Shown here: piece after piece, positions 2,955 through 29,373 of the stretch
How positions within the stretch are numbered: the first letter of the stretch is position 1
Layout: the number at the start of each line of letters is the position of its first letter
Source of the DNA: Candidatus Spechtbacterales bacterium
GTDB lineage: Bacteria > Patescibacteriota > Minisyncoccia > Spechtbacterales > 2-12-FULL-38-22
Direction: 5' to 3'
NCBI GenBank assembly: GCA_033721415.1
Contig: JAWWAH010000003.1
Span: 1 to 35,994 of the forward strand
DNA length: 35,994 nt
The notes under the pieces: model-generated
Database searches by the model: none
What the model was told of the DNA's origin: nothing
Seen by the model: only the letters and a program-made list of their open reading frames with translations
Program-made: the position numbers and the translations under genes

Positions 2955-4313
2955 ATGCACGAACAAGAACTCTGGCAAATAGTATTAACTGATATAGAGG
3001 AACAAATATCAAAGGCTAATTTTGTCACCTGGTTCAAAAATACTTATATATCATCTAAAAAAGATGGTGTTGTATCTGTAGCTGTTCCTAATGGCTTTAG
3101 TAAAGAATGGTTAGAAAAGAAATATAATAAATATATATTAAAGTCCTTACGAAATAACGCTAATGAGGTAAAAGATGTTAAATACGTAATAGAAAATAAA
3201 AAACCATCTGTTCAAGTTGCTGAAAACACCAAACAACAACGTAAAAAGGATGAGGATGATACTCAACTTCAATTTGAAGAATTACAAATAGATAAAAATA
3301 CAAATTTAAATCCTAAATATACTTTTGATTCTTTCGTGGTAGGCGCATCTAATGAATTAGCACATGCTGCAGCTTTATCTGTTGTAAATAATCCAGGAAC
3401 AACTTATAATCCACTATTTATATATGGTGGAGTGGGTTTAGGTAAAACTCACCTACTTCAAGCTATAGGTAATGAATTATCTAAAAATAAAAGAAGTGTT
3501 GTATATTTAACATCAGAACAATTTACTAGTGAGTTTATTTCAGCTGTACAAAATCAAAATATAGAAAGTTTTAAAAACAAATATAGAAAAAAAGACTTGC
3601 TTATTATTGATGATATTCAGTTTATAGCTGGTAAAGAGGGGACTCAAGAAGAGTTTTTTCATACTTTCAATGCATTACATGAAAGAAATAAACAGATAAT
3701 ATTGAGTTCTGATAGACCCCCAAAAGCAATACCTACCTTAGAAGAGCGTCTTCGTTCAAGATTCGAAGGAGGTATGCTTATAGATATTGGTTATCCTGAT
3801 TATGAAACACGAGTAGCAATTCTTAAAATAAAAATTAAAGATAAGAACGTATCTTTAAGCGAGGAGGTTATAAATTATATAGCTTCACATATACAAAAAA
3901 ATGTGCGCGAGTTAGAGGGTGCATTAAATCTTATAATAGCTTCTTCTAAATTACATAAAAATGAAATATCTTTAGATCAAGCTAAAAAAGTTTTAGCACA
4001 TCTAACACAAAAACCTAAAAAACCTATTACTTTTAAAAAGATATTTAAAACAGTAACTAGTTTTTATGAAGTAGATGAAAAAGATCTTATAAGTAAAAAT
4101 AGAAAAAGAGAAGTTGTACTACCCAGACAAGTTGCTATGTTTTTAATGAGAACAGAGATGAAGAGTTCTTATCCCTATATAGGAGAGAAGTTTGGTGGGA
4201 AAGATCATACTACAGTTATTCATGCTTGTGATAAAATTGAAAGAAAATTGAAAGAAAATAGTTCTTTTGAGGAAGAGTTTAACTTTATAAAACAACAACT
4301 ATACCTAGAGTAA
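2955..4313 (+). CDS. dnaA: Chromosomal replication initiator DnaA
   Basis: YNPLFIYGGVGLGKTHL Walker A, LLIIDDIQF, RLRSRF, GGKDHTTVIHA domain IV. Confidence 0.99.
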   Translation: MHEQELWQIVLTDIEEQISKANFVTWFKNTYISSKKDGVVSVAVPNGFSKEWLEKKYNKYILKSLRNNANEVKDVKYVIENKKPSVQVAENTKQQRKKDEDDTQLQFEELQIDKNTNLNPKYTFDSFVVGASNELAHAAALSVVNNPGTTYNPLFIYGGVGLGKTHLLQAIGNELSKNKRSVVYLTSEQFTSEFISAVQNQNIESFKNKYRKKDLLIIDDIQFIAGKEGTQEEFFHTFNALHERNKQIILSSDRPPKAIPTLEERLRSRFEGGMLIDIGYPDYETRVAILKIKIKDKNVSLSEEVINYIASHIQKNVRELEGALNLIIASSKLHKNEISLDQAKKVLAHLTQKPKKPITFKKIFKTVTSFYEVDEKDLISKNRKREVVLPRQVAMFLMRTEMKSSYPYIGEKFGGKDHTTVIHACDKIERKLKENSSFEEEFNFIKQQLYLE

Positions 4314-4563
4314 TAAAATAAGTCTGTTAATTAACAGTGGAAAACAACTAGGAAAACTTTGTGGAATATCTGAAGACTAACTGAGTATTATGTGTGTATA
4401 AAAAGTATTTTAATTACATAGTTAAAACTTATACACACTAAACCCCAGTTAATCCACAGACTACTCCTTGGGTTAGTCCACTATTAATTAATATGTTAAA
4501 TACTTATAAATACAGCTTCTAATAGGTTTTCCACTAAATGCTATCTAACCTATAATAACTACT
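4314..4563. promoter_or_regulatory. oriC part 2 (dnaA-dnaN intergenic DnaA-box cluster and AT-rich unwinding region)
   Basis: TGTGTATAA 4393-4401, TTATACACA 4429-4437, TAATCCACA 4450-4458, further degenerate boxes, then AT-rich CTA/TAA triplets before dnaN. Confidence 0.8.
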
Positions 4564-5673
4564 ATGAAATTAAATATTAAAAAAGAATTATTATTAAAGG
4601 CAGTAAATATCAACGAAAGAAATGTTGGTAGAAACTTAACGCTACCTATACTTAATAATATTTTAATTAGAGCTAACGAAAATAAAGTAGAAATTATATC
4701 TACAGATTTAGATATTGCAATTATTACAGAACTTACTGCAAAAACAGAAGAGTCAGGAAGTATAGTTATACCACCTAAAACTTTAAGTGGTTTTCTTTCA
4801 AATCTTCCTGATTCTTCAATAGAATTAAAGAAAAATAAAGAAACTTTATTTTTAAAAAATGGCACACATAAAACATCTATAAAGGGTGAGAATGATAAAG
4901 ATTTCCCTTTACTACCTAAAGTTTATAGAGATAATTACTTTACAGTTAAAGCTAAAGATATAGTTAGTGCTCTAGATCAAGTAATTAATTCTGTTTCTTC
5001 TTCAGAATTAAAACCAGAACTTACAGGAATACTTTTTAATATTACAAAAAATGAATTTAAATTAGCATCAACAGACTCATTTAGGTTATCTGAAAGAAAA
5101 GTACCTTTTGATAATATTAGTGCTATTAATAATAAAAAAATAATACCTGCAAAAACTGCTAATGAAATTATAAGAAGTTATCAAAACATTGAAGGAGAAC
5201 TTATTTTTTATATAGAAGATAACCAACTAACAGTAGAAAATAAAGATAATAATAATTTTAAAATAAGAATAATCTCTAAGTTTATAGAGGGAGATTATCC
5301 AGATTATTCTAAAATAATCCCTAATAATTTTACAACAAAAGTTATAGTTTCTAAAAAAGATCTTTTACAACAAGTTAAAGGAGCAAGCTTATTTACAAGT
5401 AGAGTTAATGATATCAGATTATCTGTAAACCAAAAAAAAATAGATATACATGCTGAAAATTATGATGTAGGAGAGTTTAATTCTTCTGTTACTGTTACTA
5501 CAACAGGGGAGAGTAAAGAACTTGTTTTTAACCATCAATATTTAATAGATGGTTTAAATAATATAGAGGGTGACGAAATTATTATAAAGATAAATAAGGC
5601 AGATGGTCCTACTATGTTTGAATCTACAGATTATAAAAATTACTTTTATATACTTATGCCAATTAGGCATTAA
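4564..5673 (+). CDS. dnaN: DNA polymerase III beta clamp
   Basis: LPILNNILI, STDLD, STDSFRLSE, EGDYPDY, YILMPI; follows dnaA. Confidence 0.98.
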   Translation: MKLNIKKELLLKAVNINERNVGRNLTLPILNNILIRANENKVEIISTDLDIAIITELTAKTEESGSIVIPPKTLSGFLSNLPDSSIELKKNKETLFLKNGTHKTSIKGENDKDFPLLPKVYRDNYFTVKAKDIVSALDQVINSVSSSELKPELTGILFNITKNEFKLASTDSFRLSERKVPFDNISAINNKKIIPAKTANEIIRSYQNIEGELIFYIEDNQLTVENKDNNNFKIRIISKFIEGDYPDYSKIIPNNFTTKVIVSKKDLLQQVKGASLFTSRVNDIRLSVNQKKIDIHAENYDVGEFNSSVTVTTTGESKELVFNHQYLIDGLNNIEGDEIIIKINKADGPTMFESTDYKNYFYILMPIRH

Positions 5674-5998: not shown

Positions 5999-8717
5999 GA
6001 ATATTAAGTGCGTCTTCGTTTTCTTCTGGAGGATTAGGTTTTCCTACAATAAAGGATACACTTCTGGATGTTGTATTTTCTTCATAAGTTTCTCCAAATA
6101 TAGTAATCGTGTAATTTCCTTCAGATAAAGAACCTAAATTATTTTGTATATTATAAGCAGATATACCATCATTAGAAAATCTTTTATTTAAAACAGTATT
6201 TTTATTTAATGTGATTCTAATATTTTTTAATGACCCTGAGGAACTTACACTTCCTGATATTATTATATCTTCACTTTCTTTATAATTTTTATTTTCTGGA
6301 TTATTTATATTTATCACAATAGGACCAGATTGTTCATTATTACCGTTACTGTCGTTTAATATTCCATTTTCTCTTGCCCATATTCTTACAGAATAATCCC
6401 AATTAGTATATTGAGGATCATTTTTAGGGTTATCTGGGGCATCTTTTCTTGGTTTGTATTTTTCAACATAATGCAGAATAGAATGAGGCATAACAACACC
6501 ATCTAATACAGGTTTTTCAGTTTTATCTATAACAGGATTAGTAAAAGACGACTCTTCTTCTAGTGTTGGAAGTTTAAAGTAAAATTCCTTGTTTTTAATA
6601 ATATCTCCTTCTAAAGATTTTTCTTTATATATATTTTTAATTACACTATTCCATATAGGAGATGCTACAGAGCTTCCTGATCCATTACGCATAGGGTAAT
6701 TATTATTATTACCAGTCCATACACCAACAGTGATACTTGGTGTGTATCCCACCGTCCATGCATCCATGTAATCTTGAGTAGTCCCTGTTTTAGCTGCAAC
6801 AGATAAACCAGGTATATTTAAATTATTTACTTCTCCAAATACACGGGATCTAAATTCATTTTTACTTAAACTGTATGTAACTTGGTTAGCTACATTTTTA
6901 TCTAAAACACGAACAGAGTTTTTTCTATATTCTTCTAATACATTACCTTCTTTATCTTCTATATTTAATATAAAAGTTGTTTCATTTCTTTCTCCTTCTG
7001 TTGCAAAAACACCAAACGCAGATGTTTCTTCTACAAGCGTTACATCTCCTCCTCCAAGGACAAGTGCTAAACCATAGCGATTATGATCCTGTAAAGAATC
7101 TATACCCATTCTATTAGCTAATTTTAACGTGTTTTCTATTCCTGCTAGATATAAAACTTTTACAGCAGGTATATTTCTTGATTGAGCTAAAGCTTCTTTA
7201 AATGTAAGAGGTCCAAAATAAGCAAGGTCATAATTACCCGGATTATAACATTTAGAACCATTTGGTGCAGTTTCTTCAAGTGCATTAGCAGAGCAGTTTG
7301 GATTAAATTCTGTACGAGTATCATATATTATAGTATCTGGTGTATATCCTCGATCATAAGCAGCTGCATAAGCAAAAGGTTTAAATGAAGAACCTGGTTG
7401 TTGTGGGGTTACAGCAACATTTACTTGAGGGTCAAATAAACAAGATTTACCAGGAGTACAATTTTCAGGATAAGAATCTCCAAAATAATTTTTAGATCCA
7501 ACCATACTTAAAACTTGTCCTGTGTGTGGATCTATTACCACAACAGCAGTATTATTTGAATTAAACTGGTTTTTATTTTTTTCAGAGTACTCTATAACAG
7601 AATCTTCTGCTACTCTTTGAATAGTGGTATCTAAAGTAGTAACAACCTTAAGTCCTGCTTTTTGTACAAAAGTAGCTCCATACTTATTTTCTAAATACTT
7701 TTTAACTTCTATAACAAAATGAGGAGCATCAAATCCACTGAAAGTAGGACTTAATATAACCTCTTCATTTAAAGCTAATTCATATTCTTCTTCGGAAATA
7801 TATTCTGAATTTTTCATTTTTTCTAGTATAAATCTCTGTCTATTTTTTAATGCTTCTTGGTTATTAGCATAATATGTAGGAGCTTGAGGTAGTGCTGCTA
7901 AAGTTGTAGCTTCTGCTAAAGTTAAATCTTTTGCACTTTTATTAAAATAACTTTTAGATGCAGCCTCTACTCCATAAGTATTACCCCCATAAGGTACTTG
8001 GTTTAAATATAAATCTAAAATTTCATCCTTTGAGTATTTAAACTCTATTTGTATAGCTAAAATAGCCTCCTTTATTTTTCTTGAAAATGTTTTTTGAGGA
8101 GTAAGTAGTGCATTTTTTATAAATTGTTGAGTTATTGTTGATCCTCCTTGGGTTCTATCTCCGGTTCTAATATTTACCACTACAGCTCTAAATATACCCT
8201 TAACGTCTATTCCTGGATGTTCATAAAAATTTTCATCTTCAGCAACTATAGTTGCCCACTTTATACTATCTGGAATTTCTTCAGGGGGTATAATAGTTCT
8301 TTTTTCTTCTCCATAAATATCATATAAAACTGTTGACTCTGTTCTATCTAATATCTTTGTTGATTCAGGAATAAAAATATCACTTATTGCTTCTGAAGAA
8401 GGAAGATCTTTACTGTAATAAACAAATAAAAAACCAATAAGCATAAGTCCAATAAATCCAGTATATGCAATAGTTTTTAATAAAGTAAATTTTTTATTAC
8501 CAACAAATTTAGCGATTTTTTTAAAACCTAACTTTAAATAATGTGCTATAAAGTATAAAATAGAAAGGAGTATTTTAAATATATCAACTAAAGCACCTAG
8601 AAACTCCCTCCCTATTTGAGGTGCATATCTTTTTAAGATATTTAAAAAACGCACTGAAAAATCCTTTACATAAGGAAGCAATGCTTTAATTTTAGATAAA
8701 ATATTTTTTTTGTTCAT
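5988..8717 (-). CDS. Class A penicillin-binding protein (PBP1A family) with probable C-terminal Ig-like domain
   Basis: AEDENFYEHPG, GGSTITQQ, RKIKE, YLNQVPYG transglycosylase motifs; GSSFKP, SRN, KTGT transpeptidase motifs. Confidence 0.95.
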   Translation of the reverse strand: MNKKNILSKIKALLPYVKDFSVRFLNILKRYAPQIGREFLGALVDIFKILLSILYFIAHYLKLGFKKIAKFVGNKKFTLLKTIAYTGFIGLMLIGFLFVYYSKDLPSSEAISDIFIPESTKILDRTESTVLYDIYGEEKRTIIPPEEIPDSIKWATIVAEDENFYEHPGIDVKGIFRAVVVNIRTGDRTQGGSTITQQFIKNALLTPQKTFSRKIKEAILAIQIEFKYSKDEILDLYLNQVPYGGNTYGVEAASKSYFNKSAKDLTLAEATTLAALPQAPTYYANNQEALKNRQRFILEKMKNSEYISEEEYELALNEEVILSPTFSGFDAPHFVIEVKKYLENKYGATFVQKAGLKVVTTLDTTIQRVAEDSVIEYSEKNKNQFNSNNTAVVVIDPHTGQVLSMVGSKNYFGDSYPENCTPGKSCLFDPQVNVAVTPQQPGSSFKPFAYAAAYDRGYTPDTIIYDTRTEFNPNCSANALEETAPNGSKCYNPGNYDLAYFGPLTFKEALAQSRNIPAVKVLYLAGIENTLKLANRMGIDSLQDHNRYGLALVLGGGDVTLVEETSAFGVFATEGERNETTFILNIEDKEGNVLEEYRKNSVRVLDKNVANQVTYSLSKNEFRSRVFGEVNNLNIPGLSVAAKTGTTQDYMDAWTVGYTPSITVGVWTGNNNNYPMRNGSGSSVASPIWNSVIKNIYKEKSLEGDIIKNKEFYFKLPTLEEESSFTNPVIDKTEKPVLDGVVMPHSILHYVEKYKPRKDAPDNPKNDPQYTNWDYSVRIWARENGILNDSNGNNEQSGPIVININNPENKNYKESEDIIISGSVSSSGSLKNIRITLNKNTVLNKRFSNDGISAYNIQNNLGSLSEGNYTITIFGETYEENTTSRSVSFIVGKPNPPEENEDALNILSL

Positions 8718-24335: not shown

Positions 24336-25097
24336 ATGAGCAATCAAATAAAAACGCTAGCATCTAAATTAGAACCCCTTGGCTTAAGCGACAAACAAGC
24401 CCGCGTTTATGTCGCTACTTTGTTTTTGGGTTCTGCTCCGGTGCAACAAATAGCAAAACAAGCAGACATTAATCGTCCAACAGCATATGTAATATTAGAG
24501 GAACTTGAAAACATGGGCTTGGTATCTGAGTCTACTGATGCTAAAAAAACAGTTTATATCGCAGAAGATCCAGAAGCGATTACTCGTTGGCTTGAGAAGA
24601 AAGAGATTGAGATAGAAGCAAAGAAGAAAAGTGCAAAAAAATTAATTAGTGACCTAGAGGGTATTAAGAGGGAAGAGGTGTCTCAGGCTCCCATGGTTCG
24701 TTTTTATCGTGGGAAAGAAGGTATAAAGTCTATATTAGCTGAATCTGCAAGAAAATCTAAACCGAAAACAGAGGTTTATGGTTTCACAAACTTGGACGAG
24801 GTAAAGAAATTGTTTCCTGGATATTTCAAAAGCGCACCAGAAAGAAGGCTTCCTAAAGATATTTCAAGCAAGGTTCTATATTCTTCTCTAGAAAAAATAG
24901 ATTTAGAAAACAAAGAAGCCTTACGTCGAGCACGGAGGGTTGATAACCCAATAGAGGCTGATATTAGCATTTACGAAGATAGAGCAACACTTTTAACTTA
25001 TGCAGGAGAAAATTCTTCCGGAATCGTTATAGAGAGTCCAGAAATAGTAAAATCTCTAAGGCAGTTGTTTGAATTAGCCTGGGAAAGCAAAGAATAA
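24336..25097 (+). CDS. TrmB-family transcriptional regulator
   Basis: LGLSDKQARVYVATL..IAKQADINRPTAYVILEELENMGLV wHTH; C-terminal effector-binding domain. Confidence 0.88.
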   Translation: MSNQIKTLASKLEPLGLSDKQARVYVATLFLGSAPVQQIAKQADINRPTAYVILEELENMGLVSESTDAKKTVYIAEDPEAITRWLEKKEIEIEAKKKSAKKLISDLEGIKREEVSQAPMVRFYRGKEGIKSILAESARKSKPKTEVYGFTNLDEVKKLFPGYFKSAPERRLPKDISSKVLYSSLEKIDLENKEALRRARRVDNPIEADISIYEDRATLLTYAGENSSGIVIESPEIVKSLRQLFELAWESKE

Positions 25098-25114
25098 AAA
25101 TAAGTCAATTAATA

Positions 25115-25143
25115 TTGACAAAAATAATATAAAGTGTTAGTAT
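25115..25143 (+). promoter_or_regulatory. Sigma70 promoter, island unit A
   Basis: TTGACA-17bp-TAGTAT with TGn; predicted start near 25150 coincides with the first helix. Confidence 0.8.
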
Positions 25144-25149
25144 ATTTAT

Positions 25150-25520
25150 GCCACACAGAACAAGAGAGAACACTGAAAGTACCTTTCAAAGGTGCTCTAA
25201 GGTTCAGAGTGTGGCGCTCACCGAAAGGACGAAAGATGGGTGGAGGTTAACAATATATTAGGCTAGAAAAATGACACCCTGCTCGGGTATAAAGAGCATC
25301 AACAAGACAGGTGCCACAATCTGATTCTCGGCACCAAACAACTTACAGTGTCCTAAAAGAAAGCCGTGGTGAATTTTTGCAAAAAAAGAGGCAAACATTC
25401 ACTAGGCCAAGATCCAAAAGGACCAACAGCACTTTTTTCCCCGTATACACCAGGTATGCGGGGAATTGTTATTTTAGGACTGGAAACTATATCTATAGCT
25501 GTGGGTATAGTTTCCGGGGC
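25150..25520 (+). ncRNA. Unknown structured ncRNA, unit A (~370 nt)
   Basis: Helices gccacac/gtgtggc (25150/25215), tgctc/gagca, ggtgcc/ggcacc, tggtgaat..tttgc/gcaaa..attcacta, gtcctaaaa/ttttaggac, 12-bp 25437-25465, 17-bp 25480-25517 with + strand G-U pairs; no credible ORF. Confidence 0.7.
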
Positions 25521-25619
25521 AATACAATATTTGTATAAATAATATTACAAAAATATAGCTATAAAATCCCTTAAAATAAAGGAAAGTATGACTAAAAAAC
25601 AATACTCTGTTATTAATAC

Positions 25620-25648
25620 TTGACAAAAAAATATCAATATGCTAATAT
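25620..25648 (+). promoter_or_regulatory. Sigma70 promoter, island unit B
   Basis: TTGACA-17bp-TAATAT with TGn; predicted start near 25655. Confidence 0.8.
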
Positions 25649-25823
25649 AACAGCAAGTTGAAATGAGGCGAGGAAAAATTCTCGCCCAAAAGCAAAGATT
25701 GCTTGGGAGCCATATACTGTTTAATTAAATTAATCAAAACAGAAAAAATGGATTACCCAATCAAAACAATAATGTAAACAGGCGAGAAGGCCTGTCTTTT
25801 TTATGCCTGAATTTCGGCAGGCC

Positions 25824-25948
25824 AACGGTTCCCCGATGGATTCGGGGCTGACGAGCCCAAAGTTTGATCTGTTTGAGGTAGTGCTCATTTAAATAACCTT
25901 CCTCATTTCAACTTTAATAACAGATTAAAGCTACAGGGCGAAACCGTT
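25824..25948 (+). ncRNA. Type III hammerhead ribozyme
   Basis: Stem III aacgg/ccgtt, GUU triplet (cut after 25830), stem I ccccga/tcgggg with loop UGGAU, core CUGACGA (25848-54), stem II gccc/gggc with conserved G10.1-C11.1, GAAA (25940-43). Stem II extended by tttgatctgtt/aacagattaaa. Confidence 0.85.
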
Positions 25949-26164
25949 AAAGAAAAACTAGGGCTTGGGAAACTATAAGTTTTTAATCGCGCCACAAAGC
26001 AATAAAAAAGGCGGACAGGTTATAAAACTTGGGGAGGCTCTCTCCCCGAAGCTCGCGTCTAAGTATATGTGATCAATTTTAATACTAAAGTTCGGACGCG
26101 GGTTATGGGGAGAGAGCAACCGAAGCTCCTCTTTTCATATATAGATATGCCGAAAGGAAAACCA

Positions 26165-26356
26165 ATGGCAAAGAAGGGCCAGGCACAGAAGCACGTTTGC
26201 CACCAGCACCCCTCTGTTCGTACGTTCCAGACACCGACCTACGAACCGGGTGACACGTTCGAGACCGCGAGGGGTAAGTCACTTTCGTTCCGTGCCCGTG
26301 TGGCTCGGCTCAAGCCACAGCCCAGGGGTTACACGAGCAAGGTGAAGCAAGGGTAG
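26165..26356 (+). CDS. Small basic protein (63 aa) embedded in unit B RNA
   Basis: SD aaagga before ATG 26165; MAKKGQAQKHVCHQHPSVRTF...KVKQG; GC-rich codons like the other island ORFs. Confidence 0.7.
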   Translation: MAKKGQAQKHVCHQHPSVRTFQTPTYEPGDTFETARGKSLSFRARVARLKPQPRGYTSKVKQG

Positions 26357-27005
26357 TTCTTCGCCCCTCATCCTTACAAACAAGGGTGAGGGGCAACCCA
26401 ACTTAATATAATATTTCGCACCACGATCTTAGCCGGTAATGCCGCTTGAGATCGCGGTGCGAGCTTAACTGGCGCGACAAAGCCCCAAGCCTGGGCATAA
26501 AAGGTTAGGGGTTCCTCTACCCCGCGATGAAGGACTAGGAGGCCGCCGGATAGGGAGTTCCTTATCCCTGGGACCAAAAGGTGCGGGGAGTAGGAGCCCG
26601 CTATCTTAGTTCACCCTGTTGTCTGCAAGGTCCGCAGGCAGAGGATGTGGTCTTGAGCTCGCACCGCAACAACTTAATGATATATGCAAATAATATCGCA
26701 TATAAGTAGTTGTTCTTTTTAATCCCGGCTATCATACGATAGCCGGCCCGACCCAAGATTACTATGCTAAGCGTAGTTATAGCGACTTTGGGCCGGGTGC
26801 AACATCAAAACAGGAGAGAACACCTTGGAGCAGTTCATTAGTTAGCAAAAACAACCCTTTCCTTCTGTGTGAAGGGGAGGGGAACTGGGTTCTAGGTTCT
26901 AGTTTATAATTTTGCTAGGTTTGTTACCTACCTTTCTAGACAAAGGCAACACTAAAACAAAAATAAACAAACCATTAAAAAGTGTCAAAAACACCGAACA
27001 AACCC

Positions 27006-27034
27006 TTGACAAGTAAATAATAATATACTATAAT
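27006..27034 (+). promoter_or_regulatory. Perfect consensus sigma70 promoter, island unit C
   Basis: TTGACA-17bp-TATAAT with A-rich upstream sequence. Confidence 0.9.
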
Positions 27035-27084
27035 ATAGGGACTAACAGTTAGTAATAAACTGTTTAAAGTTCTTAACACTGTAC

Positions 27085-27183
27085 TTTCGAGCATCGAGAA
27101 GGAGAGGGCGGGCATAAAATACTATATAGGCTCTTGACCCTCTCATTCTCGGTGTTCGAAAACTCATTCCTAAAGGAGGTGAG
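27085..27183 (+). promoter_or_regulatory. Structured 5' leader of unit C
   Basis: 16-bp helix 27085-100/27146-61 with G-U pairs plus gagaggg/ccctctc; hairpin ctcattcc/ggaggtgag sequesters the SD. Confidence 0.7.
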
Positions 27184-27186
27184 AAG

Positions 27187-27390
27187 ATGGTAGCAAGCAT
27201 CAAGCCAAGGTGCCTTTGTGGCGCCGAGGTTGGCTTCAAGGGAGACCGTTGCATCATGTGCGGAACCGACGAGGAGAACATCCAGATCGATCTGTACGAG
27301 ATCCTCGATTCGCCCCAGCCAACCACTGGGTTCTCGATTGTCCCAGACATCGAGTTCCCAACATCCGAGGCTTTGGAGCTCGGCCTTTGA
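27187..27390 (+). CDS. Small Zn-ribbon protein with acidic tail (67 aa)
   Basis: SD aaggaggtga; CLC..CIMC motif; Asp/Glu-rich C-terminus. Confidence 0.75.
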   Translation: MVASIKPRCLCGAEVGFKGDRCIMCGTDEENIQIDLYEILDSPQPTTGFSIVPDIEFPTSEALELGL

Positions 27391-27575
27391 AACAGGCTCC
27401 ATCAAGACTTTCTTACCCCTAGGGTGAGGCCCGGAAACAACCGAGGAAAAATTTAGTCTATCAGCAGGCTATCAAGCCCATTCGGGCAGCTGAGGGCACA
27501 AAGCACTTTGTGCCCTTCCTTCTAAGGTCTCGACTACTCGAGGTTTTAGAAGGGAGAGAAACCCTTCCTAAAGAA
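27391..27575 (+). ncRNA. Structured intercistronic RNA
   Basis: Consecutive helices ttaccc/gggtga, tcagc/gctga enclosing gccc/gggc, agggcacaaa/tttgtgccct, ccttctaa..tcga/tcga..ttagaagg. Confidence 0.55.
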
Positions 27576-27678
27576 GGCCAAGCGGCGAAGTCTGGTCGCA
27601 TCGTGGGGTATACACCTTCGCTCTGTATATTCTCAAAACGTGTCAAAAGCGTTTCGGGTTCAAATCCCGGCTTGGCCA
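27576..27678 (+). tRNA. tRNA-like element (class II shape) with non-canonical, enlarged anticodon arm; identity unassignable
   Basis: Acceptor ggccaag/cttggcc + A, D-loop with GG (agtctggt), long variable arm aaacgt/gcgttt, T arm tcggg-TTCAAAT-cccgg; anticodon region ggggtataca-ccttcgctc-tgtatattct. Confidence 0.7.
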
Positions 27679-27718
27679 CGAACAGTACCTATCAATCACA
27701 CACAAAAGGAGGGCTCAC

Positions 27719-28165
27719 ATGAGCCGCCGATTCAAGAAGGGCCCGACACTCGAGGCGATCGAGGAGCTCGGGATCACCCGGCGCACAAAGCCGGGCGAGG
27801 TCGATCCTGCGACCTTCATCAAGGGGGCGGCTCTCCTGTGGCAGTCCGAGTTCGCTTGGGCTGTCGACAACGAGGAGACCCGTTGGGCGTATCGAGAACT
27901 TGAGCGCCTTCTGTACGCGGCTGTTTCAGCCACGAGTCAGGACGAGCTCACAGAGGCCATCAAGCCGAAGCACAGCCTCGCTGCTCTGCGGTGCGCCACC
28001 TCGCGCATCAACAAGGCTGAGGTTAATGTTCTCGAGGAAGAGGCTCGTCGTGAAGCCTCTTCCAACAACTCTTCTCAGTCTCTTCGTGAGTCCCGCGCCC
28101 GCAAGGAGCGCAAGCGTGCTCGCGATCGCGAGATCCGTGCCCGCATGAAGGGCAAGAGCCAGTAG
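27719..28165 (+). CDS. Hypothetical helical protein with Arg-rich C-terminus (148 aa)
   Basis: SD aaggaggg; ends RESRARKERKRARDREIRARMKGKSQ; consistent codon bias. Confidence 0.8.
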   Translation: MSRRFKKGPTLEAIEELGITRRTKPGEVDPATFIKGAALLWQSEFAWAVDNEETRWAYRELERLLYAAVSATSQDELTEAIKPKHSLAALRCATSRINKAEVNVLEEEARREASSNNSSQSLRESRARKERKRARDREIRARMKGKSQ

Positions 28166-28241
28166 ACCTTCGGGGGCAGGCCGTGAAGACACCAGCCTGC
28201 CCCTGACCAACCATAAGCGAAACCCTTGAAAGGGGGTGAAT

Positions 28242-28418
28242 ATGTCGAAGAAGGTCGAAGCTAAGGAGTTCGAGATCGTAAAGACGATCTCGACGGGACG
28301 CCACCGCCGCACCGAGACCGCTCAGGTCGTTGCGCGCATCAATGGTCGTCGCGTCACGCGCCATGTCCGAAAGGACAACGGTGTGTGGAAGGACCTCCAA
28401 GGGAACACCTACAGCTGA
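28242..28418 (+). CDS. Small basic protein (58 aa)
   Basis: SD aagggggtga before ATG 28242; MSKKVEAKEFEIVKTISTGRHRRTETAQVVARINGRRVTRHVRKDNGVWKDLQGNTYS. Confidence 0.75.
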   Translation: MSKKVEAKEFEIVKTISTGRHRRTETAQVVARINGRRVTRHVRKDNGVWKDLQGNTYS

Positions 28419-28770
28419 AAAGCTGATTAGGTATCCTGGCGCGGAGCTCCGAAAAGCCGCGCAAAAACAAGGAGCAAAAGTTCCGGTCGTATAAAACACG
28501 AAGAAGGGCCGGAAAGGCGAAAAAGGGAGCGCCTAAAAAATCTCTCCAGGGAACGCAGCACTCGCGTTCCCGCTCTTACAGTATTCTCGAAGATTTCGAG
28601 GATAGCGTAGGCGCAGAAATGGAAATAAAATGCTAAAGCGAGCATTTGGAAGACTGTTTGCTTTTGCTGGAATCATGGCAATGGCAAACATGGAAGCCAA
28701 CGAATGGAAAAACAAGCACCTATAATAAATACCCGCCACAAGCTACATAAAGGCTTTTTGGCGGGTATTA
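28412..28770 (+). ncRNA. Structured 3' RNA domain of unit C with two candidate H-type pseudoknots and a terminal hairpin
   Basis: cagct-GAAA-agctg; PK 28439-75; PK 28515-46; gggaacgc/gcgttccc; tattctcgaa/ttcgaggata; final aatacccgcca/tggcgggtatt (28728-69). Confidence 0.6.
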
Positions 28771-28820
28771 AAAATTAATAAACATTATACAAGATAAAAA
28801 ACATATAATATAGATATCTC

Positions 28821-28855
28821 TTGAAAAATAGTGTGCCATATGGCATACTATTTTT
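28821..28855 (+). promoter_or_regulatory. Probable promoter covered by a 32-bp near-perfect palindrome
   Basis: TTGAAA-17bp-CATACT with TGn; aaaaatagtgtgccat|atggcatactattttt (one mismatch). Confidence 0.6.
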
Positions 28856-28878
28856 AGTTATTTTAAAGGAGGTGGTAC

Positions 28879-29373
28879 TTGAACATCGATCCAAATCGTC
28901 TTTTCAACGGAAAGTTGATACTGGCCAACAATAAAGAAATTCCAAATTATATTACTCATGATGAAATAATAGCGATTACCTTTGCGTTTCTTAAAGATAA
29001 AGGATATCCATTAAGTAATAGTTTGCGTCAGTTATCTATATTTTTTATTCCTGAAACTCGATATGGAAAAGATGGAATAGATCGTTTTTTACCAAAAATA
29101 TTTAAGTGGCGCACAAGAGACAGCACTAGTGGGAATTATCTTTCTTTAGCACTTAGCATAAAACTATTTGTACCACATCTACAGAATAGAAGAGATTTTA
29201 TAAAAACATTATTGCATGAATTAGATCACGTAGTCTGGTTTTTAGAGCATTGCGGCAGGTTTGATCGCTCAAAAAGATATAGAGCAAGACCGCACGAAAA
29301 GCGTGCGCGAAAAACTTCTCGCAAATGGTACAGAAAAGCAAAAAAGATAGCAAGCAGAAATAAGCCACAGTAA
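28879..29373 (+). CDS. Basic HExxH zinc metallopeptidase-like protein (SprT/ImmA-like zincin)
   Basis: SD aaaggaggtgg + TTG; TLLHELDH...PHEKRAR. Confidence 0.75.
   Translation: MNIDPNRLFNGKLILANNKEIPNYITHDEIIAITFAFLKDKGYPLSNSLRQLSIFFIPETRYGKDGIDRFLPKIFKWRTRDSTSGNYLSLALSIKLFVPHLQNRRDFIKTLLHELDHVVWFLEHCGRFDRSKRYRARPHEKRARKTSRKWYRKAKKIASRNKPQ

Follow-up and report, generated by a model that had tools for sequence, protein, structure and literature searches.

A hammerhead ribozyme core at the head of a predicted large folded RNA in a GC-rich island of a Candidatus Spechtbacterales genome

The stretch of DNA analysed here, referred to as the window, comprises positions 1 to 35,994 of contig JAWWAH010000003.1 (contig 3) of assembly GCA_033721415.1, the 0.93-Mb, 37.8% G+C genome of a Candidatus Spechtbacterales bacterium; coordinates are those of the forward strand. 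Between a TrmB-like gene (24336-25097) and a SprT-like/holA gene pair, all of them intact and separate, lies a 3.7-kb island of 45-62% G+C with three near-identical consensus promoters, one each for units A, B and C. Of twenty further open reading frames (ORFs) of the window that were scanned, 2 have no Pfam match and 18 belong to families of housekeeping genes (rnpA, yidC, dnaA, dnaN, polA, ruvABC, uvrB and others). The region is near dnaA, and scans of the window's ORFs found no phage, integrase or transposase family. The subject of this report is unit B, in which the promoter is followed by a 176-nucleotide (nt) leader, a type III hammerhead ribozyme core and about 1.1 kb of strongly folded RNA that includes a 63-codon ORF (ORF63). 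An original prediction, made from the sequence alone, had drawn attention to two nested pairs of 8-mers that enclose ORF63 and had proposed an intron-like RNA from which the ORF is looped out. We read unit B instead as a strongly folded RNA that is headed by a ribozyme and belongs to a GC-rich cassette locus of Saccharibacteria, and not as an intron, an interpretation that we regard as about evenly balanced between right and wrong.

The hammerhead was located by a structural scan (Table 1), and all 16 of its stem pairs are Watson-Crick. The core residues C3-U4-G5-A6-N7-G8-A9 and G12-A13-A14 are present, in columns that are invariant across seven aligned sequences; the G10.1-C11.1 pair is G25855-C25939, the A15.1-U16.1 pair is A25943-U25829, and the NUH triplet reads G-U-U with H17 at U25830, after which cleavage is predicted. 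The order of the stems is that of type III, with I and II capped and III open, stem II being capped only by way of a 77-nt insert in its loop. The predicted cut lies behind a leader of 176 nt, and the element ends at 25948, 12 nt ahead of the outer helix of the closing stem discussed below. The motif CUGANGA occurs once on either strand of 25100-28900, in this core, and the arrangement is the only one of such quality in the genome, an equal match being reached in none of 20 shuffled genomes. Unconstrained minimum free energy (MFE) folding of the whole unit draws the three-way junction, with pair probabilities of 0.75-0.81 for the hammerhead stems in the full unit. No second hammerhead or relaxed copy was found in the window, either by the CUGANGA scan of 25100-28900 or by a search of the whole window with model R1, which includes the window's own copy, so that its 57-bit score there holds by construction.

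Kinship of this core to hammerheads elsewhere emerges from syntenic loci collected with the TrmB-like protein as bait, 20 from metagenomes and 11 from genomes, the latter titled Candidatus Saccharibacteria or Saccharimonadia. Two of the metagenome loci were the first to show a canonical hammerhead, which there follows a small GC-rich ORF. Ten loci have a protein identity of 45-51% and no less than 1.6 kb of DNA past the TrmB-like gene; in five of these (L054, L059, L074, L076 and L078) a hammerhead lies 1.06-1.52 kb downstream of that gene, vs. 0.73 kb in the window; it is missing from two loci at 40% identity. The contig of a further relative, G007, ends 672 nt past its TrmB-like gene, and four shorter loci (L055-L058) lie outside this count. 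The L054 copy and both copies in L059 score 40-43.5 bits on the Rfam hammerhead model RF00008, just under its 48.5-bit threshold. The alignment of the window's core with the relatives' canonical 47-57-nt hammerheads includes loop-flanking letters outside the catalytic core. In the alignment of seven sequences, a small sample of related ones, 90.2% of the cells in the three stems are paired, 8 of 19 pairs show compensatory changes, and the covariation score is 0.316, as against 0.168 ± 0.033 in shuffles (reached in 0 of 500) and 0.035-0.130 in slid controls. With the window's sequence left out (eight sequences), 10 of the 19 pairs have changes on both sides.

Apart from the promoter stretch, which is alike across the relatives' loci, the bodies of the units are unlike in sequence between genera; what recurs is a layout of promoter, small RNA with a tiny ORF led by a Shine-Dalgarno site, GC-rich small ORFs in long folded RNA, hammerheads and tRNA-like elements. 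The metagenome locus L059 carries two type III hammerheads (5273-5319 and 6737-6785), 1465 nt apart around a 123-codon GC-rich ORF, and for the piece between the two cuts a long-range stem of 10 bp plus 5 bp around that ORF is predicted. A conserved hairpin repeat stands between small-ORF cassettes in L054 (four copies, 3162-4671) and L059 (two copies, 6006-6929); it was not found in the window's genome. With model R1, type III hammerheads also turn up in four other genomes among the 150 of the class that were searched (G024:C43:5410-5474, G070:C43:1661-1717, G127:C1:91105-91176 and G156:C1:91762-91823), in varied contexts and, where checked, on contigs other than that of the TrmB-like gene.

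The most significant long-range complement in unit B is not either of the 8-mer pairs but P1, a perfect 14-mer helix between the first 14 nt of the predicted transcript and a segment that sits inside the hammerhead's loop II insert; such a complement was reached in none of 200 shuffles. For 25655-25955 the P1 fold has an energy of -86.0 kcal/mol and the hammerhead fold one of -84.4 kcal/mol. P1 has a probability of 0.83-0.95 in nascent transcripts ending at 25916-25955, and the hammerhead fold takes over, at 0.6-0.8, once the transcript extends further. Because the two folds are nearly equal in energy, P1, as an alternative to the cutting fold, could delay or gate cleavage during transcription. 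The competition is a prediction of nested-structure energetics, and coexistence of the two as a pseudoknot is also possible.

Table 1. Features of unit B and its neighbours, in coordinates of the window
Feature	Position	Strand	Remarks
Sigma-70-like promoter of unit B	25620-25648	+	TTGACA, 17 nt, TAATAT; TG before second hexamer
P1, 5' strand	25655-25668	+	predicted transcript start; 14 nt, 100% complement of 25901-25914
Terminator-like hairpin, then U-run, within leader	25778-25802	+	probability 0.87-0.96 in long transcripts, 0.14-0.23 in P1 fold
Type III hammerhead ribozyme core	25824-25948	+	stems III, I, II of 6, 6, 4 pairs; structural scan
Hammerhead stem III	25824-25829 with 25943-25948	+	structural scan
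Hammerhead stem I	25831-25836 with 25842-25847	+	structural scan
Hammerhead core CUGACGA; GAA	25848-25854; 25940-25942	+
Hammerhead stem II	25855-25858 with 25936-25939	+	structural scan
Hammerhead loop II insert	25859-25935	+	77 nt; holds P1 3' strand 25901-25914; loop of relatives 4 nt
Composite closing stem, 5' side	25961-26000	+	25961-25969 outer, 25979-25983, 25987-25994 inner, 25997-26000
Long hairpin in ORF leader	26037-26117	+	23-nt arms, 83% complementary; mean probability 0.95
ORF63	26165-26356	+	63 codons; basic, hydrophilic; AGGA 7 nt upstream; coding status uncertain
Hairpin 7 nt past ORF63 stop codon	26363-26394	+	13 bp; without U-run
Hairpin kept in X2 relative	26416-26462	+	3' strand overlaps 5' strand of 26454-26468/26653-26667
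Alternative or pseudoknot helix	26454-26468 with 26653-26667	+	15 nt, one mismatch, 93%; crosses closing stem
Composite closing stem, 3' side	26463-26492	+	26463-26466, 26470-26477 inner, 26479-26483, 26484-26492 outer
3' part of unit B	26493-26960	+	ORF-free, strongly folded; z = -5.7 for 26498-26960
Unit A promoter	25115-25143
Unit A small RNA	25115-25470		about 320 nt, promoter to terminator; z = -5.9
Unit C promoter	27006-27034
Unit C 67-aa (amino acid) ORF	27187-27390	+	GC3 0.72; CxC...CxxC pattern
tRNA-like element	27576-27677	+	between first and second unit C ORFs
Unit C ORF148	27719-28165	+
Unit C 58-aa ORF	28242-28418	+	GC3 0.78

The 8-mers of the original prediction, tcgcgcca with tggcgcga and ggcttggg with cccaagcc, stand where it had placed them (25987-25994/26470-26477 and 25962-25969/26484-26491) and are perfect reverse complements, correctly nested. 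A G25961/U26492 wobble lengthens the outer helix to nine pairs, and two short helices (25979-25983/26479-26483 and 25997-26000/26463-26466) join with both into a composite stem of 26 bp, which closes a multi-branched domain of about 530 nt (25961-26492). Both 8-mer helices are present in the RNAfold MFE structures of 25955-26500 alone and of the whole unit (25650-26960), and in the centroid folds as well. In three transcript contexts (the full unit B, the RNA remaining after ribozyme cleavage, and unit B extended into unit C) the pair probability is 0.85-0.92 for the outer and 0.91-0.97 for the inner helix, and the predicted folds thus close off the stretch that bears ORF63, much as had been proposed. 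The domain is far more stable than its shuffles, with z = -8.74 on the + strand and -7.33 on the - strand. The closing stem is a fact of the sequence and a robust thermodynamic prediction, of moderate statistical weight.

Several observations count against the interpretation that we favour. The cleavage triplet is GUU, while six of the relatives' eight aligned hammerheads have GUC and the other two do not. Neither a search with RF00008, at E values up to 10, nor model R2, built from eight relatives with the window excluded, recovers the whole hammerhead; the former misses it and the latter finds only its 5' half, 25818-25879, at 9.6 bits and E = 2. The 77-nt insert in loop II accounts for both failures, and the same insert may have crippled the ribozyme. 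G005, the nearest complete relative (57%), has no hammerhead match. ORF63 is an orphan with a codon score near zero. No homologue of 25961-26492 was found: the search of its own genome returned only itself, 40 relatives gave no match, phages and plasmids none, the whole order (16 genomes including the window's own) only 29-nt chance matches, and the 20 metagenome and 11 genome syntenic loci only the promoter stretch. In the contig of a more distant relative, from Logan run X2, both strands of these helices are skipped at 80% identity. The two helices are the less secure part of the structure of unit B.

It is a real possibility, if a doubtful one, that these helices have no role and reflect complementarity by chance, the stretch being rich in G+C and in hairpins, and that the stability of the domain comes from local hairpins alone. 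Shuffled controls, which the original prediction had named as a check, go partly this way: dinucleotide shuffling of unit B produces a nested perfect 8-mer pair in 41 of 500 cases, so that the two 8-mers by themselves are not significant, and at least 17 MFE pairs spanning 450 nt or more are reached in 21 of 150 shuffles. Sampling of 1150 segment pairs elsewhere in the GC-rich island yields three or four duplexes of comparable strength (-35 to -36.5 kcal/mol), neither strand of the helices is kept by the X2 relative, and the genome's other GC-rich islands also fold well (z of -2.3 to -8.4). Against chance, the composite stem as a whole fares better in the same kind of control. The 28 pairs observed to span at least 450 nt compare with 7.6 ± 7.5 in shuffles and are reached in just 1 of 150, a figure that is flattered because the ends of the domain were picked at the helices. 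Of 729 windows of the island, no other pairs with the 5' segment as strongly as the true 3' segment does, at -36.7 kcal/mol, and the next non-overlapping one reaches -28.1, a gap of 8.6 kcal/mol; the high pair probabilities given above also hold across all three contexts.

The original prediction had further noted that the closing helices cross two others, 25792/26014 and 26454/26667, implying pseudoknots or alternative folds. The topology is right; in the nested model the first of these pairings has a probability of 0.00 and the second, the helix 26454-26468/26653-26667, one of 0.01-0.03. The 14 matches in 15 positions of the latter are reached in 5 of 200 shuffles, and both of its strands are kept in the X2 contig. 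That contig also keeps both strands of P1, the hairpin 26419-26468 and the segment 26642-26668, and it skips the hammerhead halves at 80% likeness. Since P1 and 26454-26468/26653-26667 are kept there and neither strand of the 8-mer helices is, those pairings look older than the closing stem. The X2 relative keeps the hairpin 26416-26462 together with the 15-nt helix, and the sequence between is not kept; one strand serves as the 3' side of the hairpin and also as the 5' side of the helix, which makes these folds mutually exclusive. The broader claim of a large folded RNA with alternative pairings thus holds up, on the stability of the domain and on P1; its intron-type extension does not, as discussed below.

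ORF63 stands out by a G+C content at third codon positions (GC3) of 0.71, as against 0.28-0.35 for the flanking host genes, of which three were measured. A codon model trained on the genome's GC-rich ORFs ranks it first of 20 open frames, though with a score of only +0.06 bit per codon, and an open frame of 63 codons is unremarkable in sequence of 55% G+C. No Pfam or PHROGs family was found for it; a protein search returned only ORF63 itself, 400 genomes of the class gave two marginal matches, as chance would, and a further search nothing. Its Shine-Dalgarno AGGA is predicted to pair with 26127-26130, and the AUG is partly paired. These pairings, the closure of the domain by 5'-3' pairing, the possibility that the 26454-26468/26653-26667 helix refolds its 3' side, and the orphan, fast-evolving character of ORF63 would all suit a fold that acts as a translation lock of the hok kind, keeping a toxin-like small gene inert until processing refolds the mRNA. 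Hok-type type I toxin mRNAs encode a small hydrophobic toxin and are accompanied by a cis-antisense RNA; ORF63 is instead basic and hydrophilic and without a membrane helix, no minus-strand promoter-like site was found within 25650-26930, neither PHROGs nor Pfam provides a family, and the coding signal is weak. We consider such a lock very unlikely.

We judge it highly improbable that unit B is an intron-type large tertiary RNA, with the ORF looped out, spliced or circularised, and bound by the 63-aa protein. The domain that bears the ORF is indeed closed by long-range helices, crossing complementarities exist, a self-cleaving ribozyme core adjoins the domain, and a layout with two hammerheads, like that of L059, could in principle excise an RNA; circular or spliced products are also mentioned as a possibility by Perreault et al. 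(2011; PMC3088659). Rfam searches of the region, at the gathering score and, in 25200-29000, at E values up to 10, however, found no intron, riboswitch or other ribozyme family. The original prediction was thus correct that no group I or group II core is recognisable, but it overlooked the hammerhead, which is. With a single hammerhead in the window, there is no second cut to free or circularise the domain; the one CUGANGA in 25100-28900 and the search with R1 gave nothing suggestive of splicing or circularisation. No gene is interrupted, the neighbours being intact housekeeping genes, and ORF63 belongs to no maturase, endonuclease or other family. That the complements are DNA-level inverted repeats, at the ends of a small mobile cassette or at a recombination site, is extremely unlikely: the island is hypervariable between close relatives, X2 contigs match it only piecewise and the locus is kept while its content differs between genera, but the breakpoints in X2 (25915/26419 and 26468/26642) fall at other places than the repeats, 25961 and 26492 are not flanked by a direct repeat, no further genomic copy exists, no transposase or integrase is nearby, and the arms are unequal (34 vs. 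23 nt), their gaps being of a kind typical for internal loops in RNA.

If unit B is a ribozyme-headed folded RNA, its course might be as follows. Transcription would start near 25655 from the consensus promoter, and the hammerhead, after the 176-nt leader, would cut after U25830, unless held for a time in the P1 fold. The cut would free a 5'-hydroxyl RNA of about 1.1 kb, from 25831 to about 26960 and perhaps running on into unit C; the 3' part of unit B has no recognised terminator ahead of the unit C promoter. This RNA would consist of the ribozyme scaffold, the stem-closed ORF63 domain of about 530 nt, and then about 470 nt of ORF-free folded RNA. By joining the ends of the domain the closing stem would stabilise and insulate it and hold translation of ORF63 at a low or conditional level. 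What the sequences show are the complementarities, the predicted folds with their controls, the hammerhead core with its kinship to those of relatives, and the conservation of the locus; actual cleavage, the transcript ends, the role of the stem, the gating and translation of ORF63 are inferred.

The purpose of bacterial hammerhead ribozymes is a long-standing open question, and unit B offers a hammerhead core within a defined transcription unit, which has a consensus promoter and belongs to a locus found repeatedly across Saccharibacteria. The 14-nt leader complement inside the ribozyme loop is a concrete candidate for a switch between a leader-paired and a cutting fold; the stem-closed domain suggests a second idea, that the cut would yield a protected, insulated small-gene RNA. 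Going further, these could be an undescribed class of large (about 1.1 kb) hammerhead-headed structured RNAs of Saccharibacteria, in which the leader stays tethered after the cut through the 14-bp helix to the loop II insert, making a co-transcriptional switch between non-cutting and cutting folds, and in which the stem-closed domain is a functional RNA, or a ribonucleoprotein with its own 63-aa basic protein, beyond its part as mRNA; taken as a whole we think this rather unlikely.

Every part of the island folds much better than its shuffles, with z of -3.2 to -9.0, as against +0.5 and -1.2 for two host gene segments. An assembly chimera was ruled out, since Logan contigs of run X1, independent assemblies though probably of the same sample as the window, connect the island with the host genes at either end. 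Relative to the 3355-nt X1 contig, 13 of 14 differences lie in the AT-rich spacers 25481-25563 and 26987-27017, beside the promoters of units B and C, and none of those listed lies inside unit A, B or C; differences between strains, or recombination of a spacer, may account for this. The X1 and X2 contigs are of DNA, and no RNA record is listed for the stretch.

Unit A is a small RNA right after the TrmB-like gene, for which no Rfam family was found. RNAs of its type are present in relatives (L049:3346-3630; L051, reverse, 60-430; L054:1890-2330; L059:4056-4410; L055; L056), and every relative inspected has one or two ORFs, only 4-5 codons long, that are preceded by a strong Shine-Dalgarno site (MGGG, MGGH, MYGG, MGGY, MDGY, MGGL and others). 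The three ORFs of unit C each have a strong Shine-Dalgarno site, and their GC3 is 0.72-0.78. Two of them are small orphans (67 and 58 aa), without a Pfam or PHROGs family. ORF148, the third, is a real gene, as indicated by its two relatives in a library of 1.8 billion proteins (53% and 43% identical, 152 and 154 aa), both of which come from Logan assemblies alone; searches of 400 genomes of the class and of viral contigs gave no relative. In the ESM Atlas the clusters closest to it consist mostly of viral hypothetical proteins (0.91, 156 shared features), a weak lead that runs contrary to the non-phage context.

The tRNA-like element of unit C has an 8-bp acceptor stem, a D arm, a canonical T arm and a swollen middle. 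Rfam matches it to tRNA-Sec at 22.1 bits (E = 0.46), far under threshold, as is a RAGATH-13 match in the region (21.8 bits), and ARAGORN makes no call. The X2 relative has a C to U change in its 5' acceptor strand, which gives a G-U wobble if the 3' strand is truly unchanged (no change is listed), and the corresponding place in L054 is taken by a tRNA whose anticodon loop has 11 nt. A 26-nt pattern taken from the element had no match in three collections. Such tRNA-like elements could be cutting signals for RNase P; RNase P RNA and tmRNA are located elsewhere in the genome. The genome has about ten more islands of 50-66% G+C, among them C7:11401-12250, C8:18151-19500, C33:9101-10050, C39:6001-6800, C42:5501-6150, C47:5801-7400, C29:51-1400 and C17:17651-18400, which are ORF-free or hold orphan ORFs without a Pfam family; two ORF-free ones have z of -6.0 to -7.1. 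The structural scan found no hammerhead in these islands. One of them lies 1.4 kb from a paralogue of the TrmB-like gene (C7:9274-9984).

Judged by bibliographic entries, we found no literature linking hammerhead ribozymes to the candidate phyla radiation or Patescibacteria, and nothing relevant on hammerheads, tRNA-like elements and small proteins jointly. Among systems that are known, the Clec2 hammerhead of mammalian 3' untranslated regions is a discontinuous ribozyme of a eukaryotic mRNA that tolerates a long insertion in stem I; in unit B the insert is in loop II. RiboJ, an engineered hammerhead insulator, trims the 5' leader to leave a defined, hairpin-protected 5'-OH mRNA end, and unit B resembles it in having a hammerhead placed to trim a 5' leader, with cleavage and insulation only proposed. 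The ORFs of group I and group II introns are likewise enclosed by long-range helices in a larger folded RNA; in contrast to those introns, unit B is without an intron core, an interrupted host gene, an endonuclease or maturase family, or evidence of splicing.

The closest comparison is with the bacterial and prophage hammerheads of RF00008. In the account of Perreault et al. (2011; PMC3088659), bacterial hammerheads number in the hundreds and are often found flanking a single gene or a short gene block, of changing identity, in prophages; those authors suggest the processing of long transcripts, with spliced or circular products as alternatives. Set beside that account, unit B is alike in its type III core and in the small, non-conserved ORFs of a single transcription unit, and one relative, L059, has two copies around a gene, while the window has a single copy. 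Unit B differs from the prophage hammerheads so described (PMC3088659) in lying in the core chromosome near dnaA, beside a TrmB-like regulator and without prophage or integrase context, and in that its hammerhead heads, rather than ends, the ORF-bearing RNA. We class unit B among the small-gene RNAs associated with bacterial hammerheads, set apart from known hammerheads by an unusual insert of 77 nt in loop II, which carries a perfect 14-nt complement to the 5' end of the predicted transcript.

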